From: a candidate division WWE3 bacterium UBA1379
GTDB taxonomy: Bacteria; Patescibacteriota; WWE3; UBA101185; UBA10185
Assembly: GCA_002305475.1 (NCBI GenBank)
Contig: DBRB01000015.1
Coordinates: 72,987 to 136,986, forward strand
Direction: 5' to 3'
Length of the DNA: 64,000 nt
The position numbers and the translations under genes are program-made. The notes under the pieces are model-generated. The model was not told the origin of the DNA. It worked only from the letters and a program-made list of their open reading frames with translations, and ran no database searches. Of this stretch, positions 28,452-34,953 are shown one piece after another; the stretch's first letter is position 1; every line of letters starts with the position of its first letter.

Positions 28452-28487
28452 TATTTGCCTGATGGGACTGAAATAGGAGAGGATAAG

Positions 28488-28790
28488 ATGACTTCTTCAA
28501 TATTTGCAACATGTGAAGGGTGCAGTTTGCATATTGAAATGATACCGTTCATCGCTTTTTGTGGTGAGTCTGTCAGAGTCGACCTTGTAAGAGATTTGTA
28601 TGTAGACGGATGGCCTACCACTGCGTCTCGAAGAAGTAGTTTTAGGGTTAATGTCGAAGACAATGAATTAAGGGCAAAGATAGCAGAATGGTTGAAGAGT
28701 GAAGTAATGCAATCACTTTCTCTTAAAGAAGAATGTTTAGAAGGTATTGTAAATAAAATTGTTGAAATGATTCGGAAGCCTCCTGGATAG
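28488..28790 (+). CDS. Hypothetical small protein (about 100 aa) with a CEGC...C motif
   Basis: A strong SD (GGAGAGG) sits 5 nt before the ATG at 28488. Composition is protein-like and locally GC-richer. No recognisable family. Confidence 0.3.
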   Translation: MTSSIFATCEGCSLHIEMIPFIAFCGESVRVDLVRDLYVDGWPTTASRRSSFRVNVEDNELRAKIAEWLKSEVMQSLSLKEECLEGIVNKIVEMIRKPPG

Positions 28791-28954
28791 AAAAAAGCGC
28801 AACAAAAGCGATAATTTTTCTTTATTTGTGCCGTTGATGCTTCGAAGTTCTCGAGCAAAAACGGCATATCATATTTTAAATACCAGCAAATGAATACTTT
28901 ATTGAAAATATGAAATTCGTGCAGATATTGTTCCTTCAAGCTATAATTTCCTAA

Positions 28955-30103
28955 ATGAAGATACTCTATATTCTAAATTCAGGTAATCCGGGTGGTATGG
29001 AACAGCATGTATTGGATTTGGTTCGGTATATGACTGATCATGGTCATAAAGTATATGTGTGGTGTAGGGAAGGTGTAGTGGCAGACTGGTATCGTCAGGC
29101 ACAAGCACAGGTAACAACCATATCCATAAATATTGAAATTGATCCTGTATATATTTATAAGCTGGTAAAGTTTCTCAGACAGGAAAAGATTGAAATTATC
29201 CATGCTCATGAATTAAAACCGGTAGTAAATAGTGTGATAGCAGGATTTATTTCCAGAGTTAAAGTTCGAATAACTCATACACATACTCCGATATCAACTT
29301 GGAAAATCGGTTCAGCAGCAAAGGTGATAAATACATTAGTGAACACATGGGTGGTAAACATTTTAGCAACAAAAGAGATTGCTCTTACAGAATCACGGAA
29401 GGAAATAAAGAAAAACGAGGGGATTAGAGAGGAAAAACTGGAAATAATTCCCAACGGGTTGGATACCCAAAACTTTGATATCTCTCCACAGCTGAAACAA
29501 TCCTACTCTTTTGAAATTAGAAATAAGCACCAGATTCCTAAGGATGCATTTATCTTTGGTCTGGTAAGCAGACTAACAGAAGAAAAAGGTCATGAAGTAT
29601 TGATTAAAGCATTTAAGAAATTACTGGAATATTCCTTATTAAATAAGGAGAATATTTATTTGATGTTGGTAGGGGGTGGAAGACTGGAAGAAAAATTGAA
29701 AGAATTAGCATCAGAATGTGGGTTATCAGAAAGAGTGATATTTACGGGAGTATTTAGGGAGGAAGACAAAGTTAAATATTATTCTGCCATTGATATTTTT
29801 GTCTTTCCCTCATTAACGGAAGGTTTCGGTTTGGTGCTGATAGAAGCTATGTATTCAAAACTACCGATCGTCTGTTCAAATCTGGAAGTGCTTCAGGAAG
29901 TGGGAGGTTCAACTGTGATGTATTTTGAGGTTGGCAATTCAGATGATTTAGCGGAAAAAATGATGAATCTTTATCAGAAAAAAGACCGACTGACAGAGCT
30001 GACTGAAAGTGCAAGAGCAAGGGTAGAACAACTGTATACTTATGAAAAATTCGGGGATAACTACGAAAATCTGTATTTTAATCTCTTAAACCCTCATGCA
30101 TAA
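28955..30103 (+). CDS. GT4-family glycosyltransferase
   Basis: N-terminal GNPGGMEQHV and C-terminal VFPSLTEGFGLVLIEAMYSKLPIVCSN. Confidence 0.8.
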   Translation: MKILYILNSGNPGGMEQHVLDLVRYMTDHGHKVYVWCREGVVADWYRQAQAQVTTISINIEIDPVYIYKLVKFLRQEKIEIIHAHELKPVVNSVIAGFISRVKVRITHTHTPISTWKIGSAAKVINTLVNTWVVNILATKEIALTESRKEIKKNEGIREEKLEIIPNGLDTQNFDISPQLKQSYSFEIRNKHQIPKDAFIFGLVSRLTEEKGHEVLIKAFKKLLEYSLLNKENIYLMLVGGGRLEEKLKELASECGLSERVIFTGVFREEDKVKYYSAIDIFVFPSLTEGFGLVLIEAMYSKLPIVCSNLEVLQEVGGSTVMYFEVGNSDDLAEKMMNLYQKKDRLTELTESARARVEQLYTYEKFGDNYENLYFNLLNPHA

Positions 30104-30106
30104 AAA

Positions 30107-30152
30107 AAGCTTTTGTCTTTAGCTTAACACCAGGACAAAAGCTTTAGGTTAA
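30107..30152. terminator. Bidirectional intrinsic terminator between convergent genes
   Basis: AAAAAGCTTTTGTC...(16-nt loop)...GACAAAAGCTTT, a perfect 12-bp inverted repeat flanked by A-run and T-run. Confidence 0.6.
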
Positions 30153-30160
30153 TTTATCTA

Positions 30161-30505
30161 TTATCTGCAAATCTGATCCCGTAAAGTGTTAATATTTTTA
30201 TTTAGGAAGCAGTAATTTTTGGAATAAACATCTTTTCCTTTTTTACTACCACTATCGTATACTCCAATGATATGAGCCACTTTTTTAAAGACCTTCTTTG
30301 CCAGTTCTTTTGAATTATTATCATATGGGCTACTCTTTTTAAATATTGCAAACATTAACTCTTCCAACTCCATAAAAAAATTACGGTCAAAATTATCTGG
30401 AAGAGGAAGGAGTAGTTGTCTGAGAATCTTTTTTGTTTTGTTCTGATCGTTTAATCTTAACGGTGTATAAAGTACTTTACCAGTAGGTGTGAATTTACCA
30501 GACAT
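30161..30505 (-). CDS. Hypothetical small protein (114 aa)
   Basis: Canonical SD (AGGAGAAAGAC-ATG). Its start and C-terminal contexts are conserved with the neighbouring 60-aa ORF. No family recognised. Confidence 0.35.
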   Translation of the reverse strand: MSGKFTPTGKVLYTPLRLNDQNKTKKILRQLLLPLPDNFDRNFFMELEELMFAIFKKSSPYDNNSKELAKKVFKKVAHIIGVYDSGSKKGKDVYSKNYCFLNKNINTLRDQICR

Positions 30506-30639
30506 GTCTTTCTCCTATATATTTTGGCACTAAGATAATAATTAGGTGACCAGATAATACAACCTTGATGTAACAAAAGCAAATGAAAGTGCTATGCCTG
30601 TCCTGACGGAATAAAAAAGCTTTGGGTTAAAGTGGATTC

Positions 30640-30822
30640 CTATTTGCAAAGAAGCCCTTTCAGAGCATTAAGATGCCAGGATATTCTCCGATAGCTGGTT
30701 CGAAAGGAACTTTCAGCATTTCTATATTCTTCATCATTCCCATTAACTGCTTCTTGCAACGCATGAAGAATTGGTCCTAATTCGTTATTTAATGCACCAG
30801 CTAGCGCCGCCTCTTTTGCCAT
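30640..30822 (-). CDS. Hypothetical small protein (60 aa), diverged paralog-like partner of the ORF at 30161-30505
   Basis: SD AAAGGAGAAAACC-ATG. It ends ...LCK-stop, against ...ICR-stop in its neighbour. GC-richer than the surroundings. Confidence 0.3.
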   Translation of the reverse strand: MAKEAALAGALNNELGPILHALQEAVNGNDEEYRNAESSFRTSYRRISWHLNALKGLLCK

Positions 30823-30902
30823 GGTTTTCTCCTTTCTTTATCACTATCTCTATTGTTATTTATAAGTGACCAAATACTACATTCACGTTATAATAAAGGC
30901 AA

Positions 30903-32039
30903 ATGAAAATCCTCATGCAAGGCCGGTACGAACTTCTTGCTAAAGGCGGCGGCGACAAAGTACAAATTGAAAATACTGCTAAGGAACTTAGAAACTTGGG
31001 AGTAAATGTTGATATTGTTGGTGGTCCTGTAAAGGATCTTTCTTCTTATGACCTTGTGCATTTATTTCAACTTGACTGGACTCCAGAAACATATTTTCTG
31101 GCCAAAAATGCTAAAGATGCAGGAAAACCACTTGTATTATCCCCAATTCATCACAGCGTGAAGGAAGTAAAGAGATTTGATGATGAATATGTTTTCGATT
31201 TCCGCAGACTATCAAAAATATTGTTCAAAGAACAGCATAAAAGGGATACTTTCAAAAATATATACAGGTCTTTGATTAATCCTCAGAAACTTAAACCCAC
31301 ATTGCAAAGTATAAATATTGGATTAAAGAACATGCATATCAGAACACTTAGTATGGCAGATATTATTCTAGTGCAGACTGAAGCAGAAGCAACGGATTTA
31401 AAAGATACATATGGGGTAGATTTTTCATGGGTGAAAATACCAAACGGAGTTGGAGAACCGTTCTTAAAGGCAAATAAATCAGATAGTAAATTACCCAATC
31501 CACTGGGTTTTCAGGACTATATTATTTGTGTAGGTAGAATTGAGCCCAGAAAAAATCAGATTAAAGTGATTGAAGCAGTAAATTGTTTACGGAAAGAAAA
31601 GAACATGGATATAAGACTGGTTTTTATCGGATCTATGAACAGCGAAAAACATTTTGAGTATAAGTACAAGTTCCGCAAAACTCTCAAGCAGTACACATGG
31701 ATTAAACATATAGAATCAGTTCCTTATGATGTAATGCCTGCATATTATAAATATGCAAAAGTCGGTGTTTCTGCCAGTTGGTTTGAAACAACTGGACTGA
31801 CCAGCCTAGAAGCTTTATTCTGTGGTAGTAATGCTGTCGCATCAGGTAAACGGGCTAAGGAGTATCTGGGTGATCTGGTGAGCTATTGTGATCCGGGAGA
31901 CGTCAATTCCATCCAGAAAGCTATAGATACTGAATATTTTAATCAGCGTCCTACAGTTCCGGAAAATATGTTTAAGGAATATACATGGGAAAATGCGGCA
32001 AAGAAAACTTTGGAGGTTTATCACAAACTGATAAAATAA
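30903..32039 (+). CDS. GT4-like glycosyltransferase
   Basis: ICVGRIEPRKN...ASWFETTGLTSLEALFCGSNAVAS. 378 aa. Confidence 0.6.
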   Translation: MKILMQGRYELLAKGGGDKVQIENTAKELRNLGVNVDIVGGPVKDLSSYDLVHLFQLDWTPETYFLAKNAKDAGKPLVLSPIHHSVKEVKRFDDEYVFDFRRLSKILFKEQHKRDTFKNIYRSLINPQKLKPTLQSINIGLKNMHIRTLSMADIILVQTEAEATDLKDTYGVDFSWVKIPNGVGEPFLKANKSDSKLPNPLGFQDYIICVGRIEPRKNQIKVIEAVNCLRKEKNMDIRLVFIGSMNSEKHFEYKYKFRKTLKQYTWIKHIESVPYDVMPAYYKYAKVGVSASWFETTGLTSLEALFCGSNAVASGKRAKEYLGDLVSYCDPGDVNSIQKAIDTEYFNQRPTVPENMFKEYTWENAAKKTLEVYHKLIK

Positions 32040-32043
32040 TTGT

Positions 32044-34953
32044 GTGCACCCCGAATTAATAGTTATTGGATTATTATTCATAATATCTTTAGTCCTTCTA
32101 TTAACCAACTTTAAAGCTGGTTTTTATGTGCTTCTAATTTTATCTGTTTTACTACATAAAGAACTTTTCAGCATTTTCAGATGGGATATTCTTCCGGTCA
32201 GACTATTTATGGTAGCATTTACAATCTTTGCAGGTATTAAAGGTCTCCAATGGTTCATTAAAGAGAAACGCATTAAGAGTGTTTTTAATCATGCTGCAAA
32301 TCCGTTTATTCTTTTCCTTTTAGCATTATGGTTGGTTCGTGCAATATCTTTGATCTTTAGTAAGAACATGCAGTCCAGTATTCAGCTTTTGGGTTTTTTT
32401 ACCTCTATGGTGGTTCTAGGTATTTATCTTTTTTACTACTTTCAGAGCAAACCTCAGGAAATAATTAAATTTATTAAATTTTATATCTTTGTAGTTTTTG
32501 GTTTGTGTGTTTTTGCATTTATTCAGCTGATTATTTATGCACAGACAGGTAAAATTTACGGAGCATTGTGGAACGTCCCCGGACATTTATCAAGAGTCGG
32601 ATCACTATTTTGGGATGTGAACCATTTCGGGGGATTATTAGCTGGTCTTCTTCCGGTATTAGGTATATTTATTTTGGTCTCAAAAGGTGTTAAGGAAAGA
32701 TTAGGATACATGTTGCTTATTATTCCGATGTCACTGGTTCTTTTATTAACCAATTCACGTACTTCCTGGATCAGTGCCTTTATTGCATTGATGGTATTTA
32801 TCACCTTAATGATAGTGAGGAGAGTGGGTGTAAAAGGTGTGGTTGCAGTTGTTTTGGCATTGATCCTGATATCTATACCGTTTGTTATTGAGTATCAGGA
32901 TAAATCCAGTCCCTTTAGAGCCAGGGTAAAACAGTATTTCCATTACAGAATAGATTCGTTTGATTCGCACCTGCTACTGTTAAGAGGTGCATTTCAGGTA
33001 TTTGAATCATATCCGTATATTGGTGGCGGTTATGGTAGTTTCTTTGAACATTTTTCCAAGACAAAGGTAGCTGCTGAATTTTTCGGTAGAGATCCTGCGG
33101 CACTAAATGTCCGTGTACCTGCTCATACCATATGGGGGGAATTAGTGGCAGAAACAGGCATTACCGGATTGGCAGTATTCATCCTTTTTATACTTTCCGG
33201 ATTGCTGCCCCTTTTATATCTATCACAAAATCAGAAAGATAAAAAAGAATACTTAATTTCTTCAGCTATGTTAGCCGGTTTGGTAGGATGGCTTACTGCC
33301 GGAATATTTTACTCATACAATTCAGAGTTTTTCTGGCTAGTGTTCTTTATGTATTTCATCTATGGATTGAACATTTTAGGGCGGGATAAGTACGGAAAAA
33401 TTATTTCTCACTACACCCAGCATAATAGTATCGGTTTTTGGTTGATCCTAATTATCTCAGTAGGTTTGGTTTTCTTTAACTTAGGGAAAAACCACCTATT
33501 GCCTTGGGATGAGGCTATATATGCACAGATTGCTAAAAATATGGTGCAATCGGGAGATTTTATTGTTCAGAGATGGTGGCCGGATAGGGTATGGTATGAA
33601 AAACCTCCGCTTGGTATGTGGCTGATAGCAGTTTCATTCAAATTATTTGGAATTTCTGAATTTACAGCTCGATTATCTTCAGCAATATTTGGAATCGGTA
33701 CGGTATTAATTGTGTATTTCTTCGGAAGAAGAATGTTTAATAAAACAGTTGGTTTTATTTCGGCATTGTCTCTATTGACCACATTTAACTTTTTATATTA
33801 TTCCCGGGCATCAATGCTTGATGTAACTTCTACATTCTTTATTACTTTATCTCTGTTTTTATACTGGCTGGCAAAAAATAATAACAGAAATCAGATTATG
33901 TATTGGGTAATCTCCGGTCTTACGGTTGGAATGAGTATTATGGTAAAAGGGGTAGTCGGTTTTATACCATTTGCGGTGATAGGTATGTTTGAAATATATC
34001 TATTCCTGATAAAGAAACAAAAGCTTAACAGCCGACTTTTTTTGGGATATTTCTCATTCTTCATATTCAGTGTATTGGTATTTATGCCATGGCATTTGGA
34101 AATGTATAGGAGATTTGGTGCTGCGTTTATTGATAATTATCTTGGATATCATGTTCTGGATAGGGCAACATCGTCCATAGAAGATAAAGGAAGACCGTTC
34201 TTCTGGTACACGATAGTCATGAAAGTGAGTATGCGAATCTGGTTTGTGGTATTAATTCCTGCTTTACTTTCGATTATGTACGGAATTTATAAGAAATCAG
34301 ATAAAAATACATTCCTTATGATCTGGCTCGTTTTCATTTTTCTCCTATTTTCCAGCGCTACATCAAAATTAAAATGGTACATTATTCCGATTTATCCTGC
34401 TACATCTTTAATGGTTGGGTATTTCCTTGAACGAGCCTTAGATTTTCTATTCAATAAGGTGAAAGTATTAAACCCGGTAATAATTAAAACCATGTTCCTC
34501 TACTCTCTGGTGGTATTCGGCTTGTTTTATTTATTTGTGAACAGGGAGCTAGTTTACGAAACGGATTTGACGGGAGCACAGGCACTACTTTTGGAAGAGA
34601 AGGATCAGATATTCGGAACCGATACGAAAGTGTATGCAGATAGAATTGACCTGCCGTTGATCTTATATTACTCCGACAGTCCGTTTGAAGTCGTCGATTT
34701 TGCACCCTTAAATGAGAAAATATCCGTACTTACTCCTGAAGATAAATTTATCTTTATAACCAAAGAAAGTCGTTATAGAAAACTAAAGGAGAGCTACCCC
34801 AGAATAGAAAAGGTATCCGGTTATAAAGAATGGGTTATGGGTTTCATTTCGTATGGGTATGATTATGACTCTTCAACTAAAGAGGTGAATCCTATCGATC
34901 AACCATTGATTCCACCCGTAGATACCCCAATACAAATCCAAAATAACCCTTGA
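32044..34953 (+). CDS. Fusion membrane protein: N-terminal O-antigen ligase/polymerase-like (Wzy_C) domain plus C-terminal ArnT/PMT-like GT-C domain
   Basis: 969 aa with a GTG start. The N-terminal half has TNSRTSWISAFIAL...GGGYGSFFEHF...VPAHTIWGELVAETGITGL (O-antigen ligase family signature). The C-terminal half has PWDEAIYAQIAKNM (the DE-x-RYA-like acceptor loop of ArnT/PMT) and PLGMWLIAVSFKLFGISEFTARLSSAIFGIGTVLIVYFFGRRMF. Confidence 0.55.
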   Translation: MHPELIVIGLLFIISLVLLLTNFKAGFYVLLILSVLLHKELFSIFRWDILPVRLFMVAFTIFAGIKGLQWFIKEKRIKSVFNHAANPFILFLLALWLVRAISLIFSKNMQSSIQLLGFFTSMVVLGIYLFYYFQSKPQEIIKFIKFYIFVVFGLCVFAFIQLIIYAQTGKIYGALWNVPGHLSRVGSLFWDVNHFGGLLAGLLPVLGIFILVSKGVKERLGYMLLIIPMSLVLLLTNSRTSWISAFIALMVFITLMIVRRVGVKGVVAVVLALILISIPFVIEYQDKSSPFRARVKQYFHYRIDSFDSHLLLLRGAFQVFESYPYIGGGYGSFFEHFSKTKVAAEFFGRDPAALNVRVPAHTIWGELVAETGITGLAVFILFILSGLLPLLYLSQNQKDKKEYLISSAMLAGLVGWLTAGIFYSYNSEFFWLVFFMYFIYGLNILGRDKYGKIISHYTQHNSIGFWLILIISVGLVFFNLGKNHLLPWDEAIYAQIAKNMVQSGDFIVQRWWPDRVWYEKPPLGMWLIAVSFKLFGISEFTARLSSAIFGIGTVLIVYFFGRRMFNKTVGFISALSLLTTFNFLYYSRASMLDVTSTFFITLSLFLYWLAKNNNRNQIMYWVISGLTVGMSIMVKGVVGFIPFAVIGMFEIYLFLIKKQKLNSRLFLGYFSFFIFSVLVFMPWHLEMYRRFGAAFIDNYLGYHVLDRATSSIEDKGRPFFWYTIVMKVSMRIWFVVLIPALLSIMYGIYKKSDKNTFLMIWLVFIFLLFSSATSKLKWYIIPIYPATSLMVGYFLERALDFLFNKVKVLNPVIIKTMFLYSLVVFGLFYLFVNRELVYETDLTGAQALLLEEKDQIFGTDTKVYADRIDLPLILYYSDSPFEVVDFAPLNEKISVLTPEDKFIFITKESRYRKLKESYPRIEKVSGYKEWVMGFISYGYDYDSSTKEVNPIDQPLIPPVDTPIQIQNNP

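Follow-up and report, generated by a model that had tools for sequence, protein, structure and literature searches.

The stretch of DNA analysed here (hereafter the window) comprises 64,000 nucleotides (nt) of contig DBRB01000015.1, which comes from a bacterium of the candidate division WWE3 within the candidate phyla radiation (CPR, or Patescibacteria). Within it, two genes for family-4 glycosyltransferases, GT4_1 and GT4_2, are separated by a spacer of 799 base pairs (bp) that contains two small open reading frames (ORFs), orf114 and orf60, the sole minus-strand ORFs in a run of co-directional genes of about 19 kb. The assemblies that contain homologues of GT4_2 belong to WWE3 and Patescibacteria. 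The order of the genes p480, GT (412 amino acids, aa), GT4_1, GT4_2 and a Wzy_C/PMT fusion is kept in all relatives; the locus is chromosomal, is conserved across more than 20 WWE3 genomes, and is a conserved cell-surface glycosylation operon of these bacteria. The PMT_2/PMT domain of the fusion is that of a dolichyl-phosphate-mannose-type glycosyltransferase, and the fusion is present in all related WWE3 loci. Both small ORFs lie on the same contig, in identical arrangement, in assemblies from two samples, which differ by three single-nucleotide polymorphisms (SNPs) in 3 kb; none of these falls inside the insert, and the comparison is therefore uninformative on selection.

An original prediction, made from the letters of the DNA, had described this spacer as a tandemly duplicated module with two small genes. 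What the present analysis adds is that the whole of the 800 bp appears to be inserted into an otherwise overlapping gene pair and to be flanked by a duplicated piece of that overlap. The features on which this reading depends are collected in Table 1.

Table 1. Features of the GT4_1/GT4_2 spacer and adjoining genes, in window positions.
Feature	Position	Strand	Description
GT4_1	28955-30103	+	Family-4 glycosyltransferase gene, left of the spacer
Left flanking direct repeat	30088-30100	+	AAACCCTCATGCA; last four codons (N-P-H-A) of GT4_1
T_A	30101-30152		GT4_1 stop TAA, A7 tract, hairpin, AGGTTAA; directly 3' of the left repeat
orf114	30161-30505	-	114-aa orphan, basic (isoelectric point, pI, 9.8), predicted helical
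orf114 Shine-Dalgarno/start context	30503-30516	-	AGGAGAAAGACATG; 12/14 identical to the orf60 context
P_A	30543-30582		Apparently decayed copy of the putative divergent promoter block; core 29/40 identical to P_B
Pseudo GT4_2 5' end	30583-30611	+	ATGAAAGTGCT-ATGCCTGTCCTGACGGAA; 22/31 (71%) identical to GT4_2 nt 1-30; unit junction
T_B	30612-30630		Trailer copy without hairpin, TAAAAAAGCTTTGGGTTAA
orf60	30640-30822	-	60-aa orphan, pI 6.7; Shine-Dalgarno/start context AGGAGAAAACCATG
P_B	30863-30902		Intact copy of the putative promoter block
Real GT4_2 5' end	30903-30932	+	Right copy of duplicated segment; holds the right flanking repeat (30907-30919)
GT4_2	30903-32039	+	Family-4 glycosyltransferase gene, right of the spacer
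Wzy_C/PMT fusion gene	32044-34953		Downstream of GT4_2; 969 aa; O-antigen-ligase-like Wzy_C plus PMT_2/PMT domains

The GT4_1/GT4_2 junction in related genomes

The junction between the two glycosyltransferase genes was compared in 27 related loci. In 19 of them the stop codon of GT4_1 and the start codon of GT4_2 share a 4-nt overlap (ATGA), three more (L007, L029 and L030) have longer overlaps of 23-29 nt, and in another four a gap of 5-53 nt separates the genes, which are thus adjacent in 26/27 loci. Only L024 has extra DNA at the junction, and this DNA is a further GT4 paralogue. The junction is free of an insert also in the nearest relatives as judged by identity of GT4_2 (72%, 69% and 68%). 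Since the two genes overlap or nearly touch in all related loci but one, the ~800 bp were, as far as the comparison of sequences goes, gained in this lineage by insertion between two translationally coupled genes and are not an ancestral intergenic region.

The left and right ends of the insert are bounded by a 13-nt direct repeat, AAA[C/T]CCTCATGCA, whose left copy is identical to nt 5-17 of GT4_2 (30907-30919) at 12 of 13 positions. The perfect 9-nt core CCTCATGCA has only two sites in the window, at 30092-30100 and 30911-30919, where 0.32 would be expected; the left copy forms the last codons of GT4_1 and the right copy codons 3-6 of GT4_2. Such a direct repeat at both flanks (9 bp perfect, 12/13 over 13 bp) is what the target-site duplications of transposable elements look like. 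Its origin could be traced to the genes themselves. In L029 and L030, GT4_1 runs 29 nt into GT4_2 and ends in ...YENLNARPL*; the 5' end of GT4_2 in the window, when read in the same alternative frame as GT4_1 of L029, gives ..ENPHARP.., and GT4_1 of the window ends in ...NPHA*. Because this NPHA tail corresponds to nt 6-17 of GT4_2 in the frame that GT4_1 of L029 uses, the left repeat is best explained as a duplicated piece of the former GT4_1/GT4_2 overlap, and with that piece duplicated both genes could stay complete.

The trailer element T_A contains a hairpin (30106-30145) formed by a perfect 12-bp inverted repeat with arms at 30106-30117 and 30134-30145. Its predicted folding energies are -16.2 kcal/mol on the plus strand and -16.6 kcal/mol on the minus strand (z scores of about -3.4 and -3.0), on the minus strand it is followed by U7, and it is probably a bidirectional intrinsic terminator. 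A search of positions 29900-31100 against Rfam (E<=1) returned no RNA family.

The spacer was also considered as a decayed GT4 gene. When positions 30050-30950 were searched by tblastn with 124 GT4 homologues and with every ORF from the related loci, the match obtained was to the first 16 codons of the real GT4_2 only. The pseudogene was rejected, as plus-strand similarity to GT4 genes is absent and the sole relic is a 29-nt pseudo-start (Table 1); weak minus-strand matches between residues 59-108 of GT4_2 and the 5' region of orf114 (E ~4e-4, for a database of 900 nt and thousands of queries) were judged to be due to chance.

Short spacers are present at the same junction in a few relatives. 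In L006 (3888-3903) and L012 (2843-2858), 16 nt beginning with TTGTATAAT separate the two genes and place an extended -10-like element, TGTATAAT, directly before GT4_2, and the 53-nt spacer of L011 holds a short hairpin and an AT-rich stretch. Uncoupling of GT4_1 and GT4_2 with an internal promoter would therefore have arisen more than once.

Two tandem units with a shared frame

The insert is formed by two tandem units, the limits of which were refined to 30101-30611 (unit A) and 30612-30932 (unit B), with the genuine 5' end of GT4_2 making up the last 30 nt of B. Both units run head-to-tail and have the same order on the minus strand: a promoter-like block (P), a Shine-Dalgarno sequence and ATG, a small ORF, and a trailer (T). 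The elements shared by the units are the 3' trailer, the Shine-Dalgarno/start context and a block of ~70 nt that comprises the promoter and the GT4 5' end; they are 72-90% identical, which is well above chance, and they recur at spacings of 510, 478, 317 and 320 nt. Local alignment of the promoter/5'-end repeat (30543-30598 against 30863-30918) gave a score of 40, compared with 15.3 +/- 2.4 for shuffled sequences (z ~10), and the trailer AAAAGCTTTrGGTTAA matches between the units at 15/16 positions (z ~6). Every motif named in the original prediction was found in its place, and the two adjacent units with a common trailer and start context stand. If the hairpin of unit A is set aside, the trailer extends to TAA, an A-tract, GCTTT and rGGTTAA, with 17/20 positions identical without gaps or, by reading, 18 matches with one gap. 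The P and trailer motifs have only these two sites each in the window.

In both ORFs a Shine-Dalgarno sequence, AGGAG, precedes the ATG by 6 nt. The start context AGGAGAAANNCATG is matched exactly only at orf114 and orf60 in the window (with one mismatch allowed there are three matches, where 0.62 are expected), and the likeness is therefore more than a generic Shine-Dalgarno match. The last codons, which the original prediction had likewise counted among the shared parts, are common to both ORFs at 9/12 nt, a marginal value that could be due to chance.

Between these ends the units have nothing in common. Comparison of the two small proteins by BLASTP gave nothing at E<=100, local alignment of the DNA gave z scores from -0.3 to 0.9, and the similarity along the whole unit that a simple tandem duplication would leave is thus absent. 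The GC content is 31% for orf114 and 41.5% for orf60, in a window of 36%, so that the differing interiors and the GC-richer second unit of the original prediction were both borne out. Because the flanks are 72-90% identical while the interiors show no residual similarity, a two-fold difference in length and a 10-point difference in GC, orf114 and orf60 are to be read as different cargos in a shared frame and not as diverged copies. Of the local duplication followed by rapid divergence that had been proposed, the duplication remains, in the form of an intergenic frame repeated in tandem, and the divergence of the coding sequences does not.

The middle junction and the promoter blocks

Where the two units meet (30583-30630), a copy of nt 1-30 of GT4_2 is followed directly by TAA and the hairpin-less trailer. 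The right end of one unit is here fused to the left end of the next, which is the signature of a tandem duplication that extended from the stop codon of GT4_1 to nt 30 of GT4_2. T_B equals T_A minus 32 nt, exactly as a deletion between two AAAAGCTTT direct repeats would leave it, and has no stable fold (z ~0).

On the plus strand, P_B carries a -35 element GTGACC (30866-30871), a spacer of 17 nt, a -10 element TATAAT (30889-30894) and a Shine-Dalgarno sequence AAGG before the start of GT4_2. This is the best sigma-70-like site in positions 29900-31100, with 10/12 matches, and it is placed to drive GT4_2. As far as could be read from the sequence, P_A has kept GTGACC, but its -10 element is TGTAAC, with both key positions lost; its Shine-Dalgarno sequence is AAAG instead of AAGG, and the pseudo-start that follows has a 1-nt deletion. 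The loss of plus-strand signals from P_A has the appearance of decay at a place where no gene follows, and the decayed copy of the GT4 promoter and first codons that the original prediction had seen in unit A is thereby upheld. On the minus strand, sequence reading gives TTGCCT (30902-30897), 17 nt and TAGTAT (30879-30874) in P_B, and TTGCTT-17-TATTAT at the matching positions of P_A; these hexamers could plausibly serve, we infer, as a weak promoter for the small ORFs.

The small ORFs and their products

Several lines of evidence bear on whether orf114 and orf60 are genes. When the insert was dinucleotide-shuffled 5000 times, the longest ORF rarely reached 114 codons (P = 0.0018), and a second ORF of 60 codons or more was also rare (P = 0.012). 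The codon log-likelihood ratio per codon was 0.21 for orf114 and 0.23 for orf60, in each case the best of the six frames, with 0.24-0.29 for the neighbouring genes; and GC in orf60 falls from the first to the third codon position (0.54, 0.41, 0.30). An AlphaFold2 (AF2) model of orf60 is a confident two-helix alpha-helical hairpin with a predicted local distance difference test (pLDDT) score of 93.5, for which a Foldseek search of the PDB gave generic helical hairpins only, all at E > 1. The model of orf114 has four helices and a pLDDT of 54, too poor for a fold search.

No family could be assigned to either protein. A word-indexed search of 5.8e9 protein clusters returned only self-matches for both, an exhaustive phmmer search of 1.8e9 representatives with orf114 returned itself and one weak repetitive match (E = 1e-4), and there was no match among the proteins of viral contigs. 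Nothing significant was found for orf114 or orf60 in Pfam, PHROGs, PADLOC or NCBIfam, and the earlier suggestion of toxin, immunity or anti-defence proteins finds no backing in these collections.

On balance, orf114 and orf60 are probably real protein-coding genes, although a fair measure of doubt attaches to this, and their products are most likely real, host-adapted orphan proteins, namely a 60-aa helical hairpin and a basic 114-aa helical protein. The opposite view, to which the original prediction had given equal weight, is that the ORFs are non-functional by-products, spurious or decaying in the junk DNA of an old rearrangement in which only the terminator and the promoter matter. The lack of any homologue or family match, the low-confidence fold of orf114 and the visible decay of the adjoining P_A and T_B would be in keeping with it. 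The lengths of the ORFs, their strong and identical Shine-Dalgarno context, their gene-like codon usage in the proper frame and the confident model of orf60 argue for genes, as does the compactness of CPR genomes, of which the window, otherwise tightly packed, is an instance; the by-product view is considered the less likely of the two.

A segment of orf114 (30417-30431) is complementary to 29167-29181 in GT4_1 at 14/15 positions (93%; AAAGTTTCTCAGACA), which by a rough estimate is about what chance would give in AT-rich DNA of this length.

A possible history of the insert

The reading towards which we incline, with moderate conviction, is that the region is a lineage-specific insertion of ~800 bp in the former GT4 overlap and consists of two modules whose frame was duplicated and whose cargos are unrelated. 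In a first step, a self-contained small-gene module would have entered the overlap of the two GT4 genes, and part of the overlap would have been duplicated, so that GT4_1 would end with N-P-H-A-stop in the left copy and GT4_2 begin in the right copy. In a second step, a tandem duplication would have reached from the stop codon of GT4_1 to about nt 30 of GT4_2 and left a pseudo GT4_2 start at the junction. In a third step, the interior of at least one copy would have been replaced, or the two modules would derive from different haplotypes. Later decay may have removed the hairpin from T_B, and the plus-strand -10 element and Shine-Dalgarno sequence from P_A, which would no longer have preceded a gene. 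Module entry and tandem duplication are supported by the flanking repeat and the fused middle junction; the third step we infer because the interiors are unrelated.

Such an insert would break both the translational and the transcriptional coupling of GT4_1 and GT4_2. The hairpin of T_A would then end the transcript of GT4_1 as well as the antisense transcript of the small genes, while P_B would give GT4_2 and the genes downstream a new promoter of the sigma-70 type. Transcription of the small genes probably starts from the minus-strand side of each P block, and that of orf60 may read through the hairpin-less T_B into orf114.

Several points weigh against this history. A plain tandem duplication predicts similar interiors, of which there is no trace, and the replacement step is ad hoc. 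The trailer joins GT4_2-derived sequence at nt 17 on the left and at nt 30 in the middle, and one simple event does not explain both. T_B lacks the terminator structure that unit A has in its hairpin and minus-strand U7. The minus-strand hexamers, TTGCYT-17-TAKTAT, are common to both P copies but match the consensus at only 8/12 positions, below the threshold of the scanner. The orphan status of both ORFs and the poor model of orf114 leave room for non-functional ORFs. The phage, plasmid, viral and metagenome collections yielded no donor sequence. Finally, no collection searched holds a relative with more than 72% protein identity, so that the order of events and any variation in copy number are not observable.

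Alternative origins of the two units

A rather unlikely alternative is that there were two independent insertions at one hot spot, by members of a cassette family in which the ends are conserved (T at one end, P with Shine-Dalgarno and ATG at the opposite one), the cargo varies and each insertion duplicates the target. It would account for the three copies of the GT4_2 5' end (13 nt on the left, ~30 nt in the middle, and the real one on the right), which give the pattern [d]-X-[d]-X-[d] with d as the target and X as the insertion, for unrelated cargos of such different GC, and for homology whose limits are exactly the start codon at one end and the last codons at the other. The two target copies are, however, unequal (13 against 30 nt), and P_A and P_B (72% identical) are about as diverged as the pseudo and the real GT4_2 start (71%), which fits a single duplication in situ. 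The family, moreover, has no other visible members: further T or P ends are absent from the window, and exact patterns of P, and of T with the ORF ends, gave no match in the metagenome contigs of the Joint Genome Institute (JGI) or in viral contigs, a search that required 24-26 exact positions and would miss diverged relatives. The insert DNA had no match by blastn in phage and plasmid collections either, so that the multiple copies typical of a transposable element were found neither in the window nor in the metagenome, viral, phage and plasmid collections. The T and P ends do not form the inverted repeats that insertion sequences (IS) and miniature inverted-repeat transposable elements (MITEs) would require, and the insert holds no ORF beyond orf114 and orf60, hence no recombinase, although no scan for integrase or transposase genes was extended to the wider window.

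It is improbable, but would be of more interest, that the shared frame is a reusable chromosomal 'expression slot' or a cassette family of CPR bacteria, in which unrelated small ORFs are swapped precisely between start and last codons; as a variant, one or both ORFs could have arisen de novo in the inserted spacer. Such a frame would offer a divergent promoter, a Shine-Dalgarno sequence and ATG on one side and last codons, stop and trailer on the other, and the two modules would be two fillings of it. If this were true the case would be more notable; on the present evidence it is one of well-documented but ordinary genome plasticity.

Slightly less probable again is a tandem duplication of one small gene, after which rapid divergence would have made its two coding sequences unrecognizable as copies. 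Both units do have flanks and a Shine-Dalgarno/start context in common, and perhaps the last three codons too, but it is hard to see why the interiors should have lost all similarity in DNA and protein while the non-coding flanks, presumably less constrained, kept 72-90%, and the ORFs differ in length (114 against 60 aa) and in GC by 10 points; these facts strongly disfavour the model.

It is very improbable that the two small genes, which point the same way, are a defence pair of the toxin-antitoxin or another kind, with a near-neutral orf60 followed by a basic orf114: the order, sizes and charges (pI 6.7 and 9.8) resemble those of type II pairs, co-transcription is possible as T_B lacks a terminator, and a PIN-domain toxin module is inserted in the same operon of relatives, but no toxin, antitoxin or defence family was matched in Pfam, PADLOC, NCBIfam or PHROGs, the genes lie 134 nt apart with the duplicated P/T junction between them and a promoter-like block each, unlike a tight bicistronic pair, and the pairing is explained by the duplication of the frame.

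Other insertions in the operon

Other junctions of the operon also carry lineage-specific genes in the relatives, which encode an additional GT2 glycosyltransferase, a PIN toxin, a methyltransferase, a GreA-like protein and a TPR-like protein. In L010 (4931-5535) and L026 (4903-5603), a gene inserted between p480 and GT(412), next to the extra GT2 gene, encodes a PIN-domain protein (147-148 aa; Pfam PF01850, E = 1.4e-12) and has a small ORF of 51-77 aa upstream; together they look like a toxin-antitoxin module of the VapBC type. The TPR-like family (~250-310 aa, 31-58% identity among its members) is found in L007 (6076-6858, minus strand) and, on the plus strand, in L024 (2328-3254), L029 (3123-3881) and L031 (3065-3826), at differing junctions (p480/GT or GT/GT4_1) and in either orientation among WWE3 genomes.

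In the window itself, a second lineage-specific insertion (28452-28954) is present between GT(412) and GT4_1, which are only 10-25 nt apart in many relatives. It consists of an orphan ORF, o111 (28455-28790, plus strand, 111 aa), and a spacer of 164 bp. The codon usage of o111 is gene-like, it matches no family and shows no similarity to the genes that relatives have at this junction, and it contains one of the three SNPs (at 28504) that distinguish the samples. Upstream of GT4_1, at 28866-28916, there is a 17-nt inverted repeat with 88% complementarity (arms 28866-28882 and 28900-28916), and its loop contains GCAAATGAA (28885-28893), the 9-mer with which both P blocks also end, immediately ahead of the GT4_2 ATG. 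This may be a third relic of a P end or a chance occurrence; in the alignment of the P-like site there (28879-28894, 13/16), only the GCAAATGAA core is in common. Given the lineage-specific genes at other junctions in the relatives, and o111 here, the operon is evidently a permissive scaffold for insertions and a hot spot among WWE3 genomes.

Comparison with known systems

The findings show how a streamlined CPR genome can gain accessory genes in a translationally coupled operon while both neighbours are kept. The recipe would be to duplicate the overlap, to end transcription of the upstream gene at a terminator and to resume it for the downstream genes from a promoter. They also yield two candidate orphan small proteins in a surface-glycosylation locus, one of them with a very confident helical-hairpin model.

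Several known systems share parts of this picture. Integron cassettes and MITE-like elements likewise have short tandem units with conserved ends, variable content, one orientation and a direct repeat of the target; here, in contrast, neither terminal inverted repeats nor an attC-like structure was found, there are no other copies in anything searched, and the two small ORFs are the only ones in the insert (no scan of the rest of the window for integrase or transposase genes was made). Tandem duplication by unequal or illegitimate recombination at short direct repeats would give the head-to-tail order, the fusion of a GT4_2 start to a stop codon and T, and the outer short repeat, but it leaves the interiors alike, which they are not, and the middle junction does not lie at the 9-bp repeat itself. 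The replacement-type flexible islands of surface-polysaccharide and glycosylation clusters resemble the locus in having a conserved glycosyltransferase scaffold with strain- or lineage-specific genes at its junctions; they differ in that the cargo here is two tiny orphan proteins that have no sugar-related domain and split a translationally coupled pair.

The closest analogy is with the phage 'morons', of the type of gene 15 of HK97, which are defined as additions absent from relatives, with deviating GC and a promoter and terminator of their own (PMC3594210). As in these, extra DNA with a GC content unlike its surroundings stands between genes that are adjacent in relatives, and it is organized as a self-contained unit with a promoter-like block, a Shine-Dalgarno sequence, a small ORF and, in unit A, a predicted factor-independent terminator. 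Unlike them, it has no match in phage collections and resides not in a phage or prophage but on the chromosome of a CPR bacterium, within a conserved glycosylation operon, where it lies antisense, as two tandem modules with common ends and putative promoters. The insert would thus work like a moron without belonging to that class, and the case adds a further instance to a familiar type of event, the insertion of orphan genes, together with local duplication, in a variable glycosylation locus.

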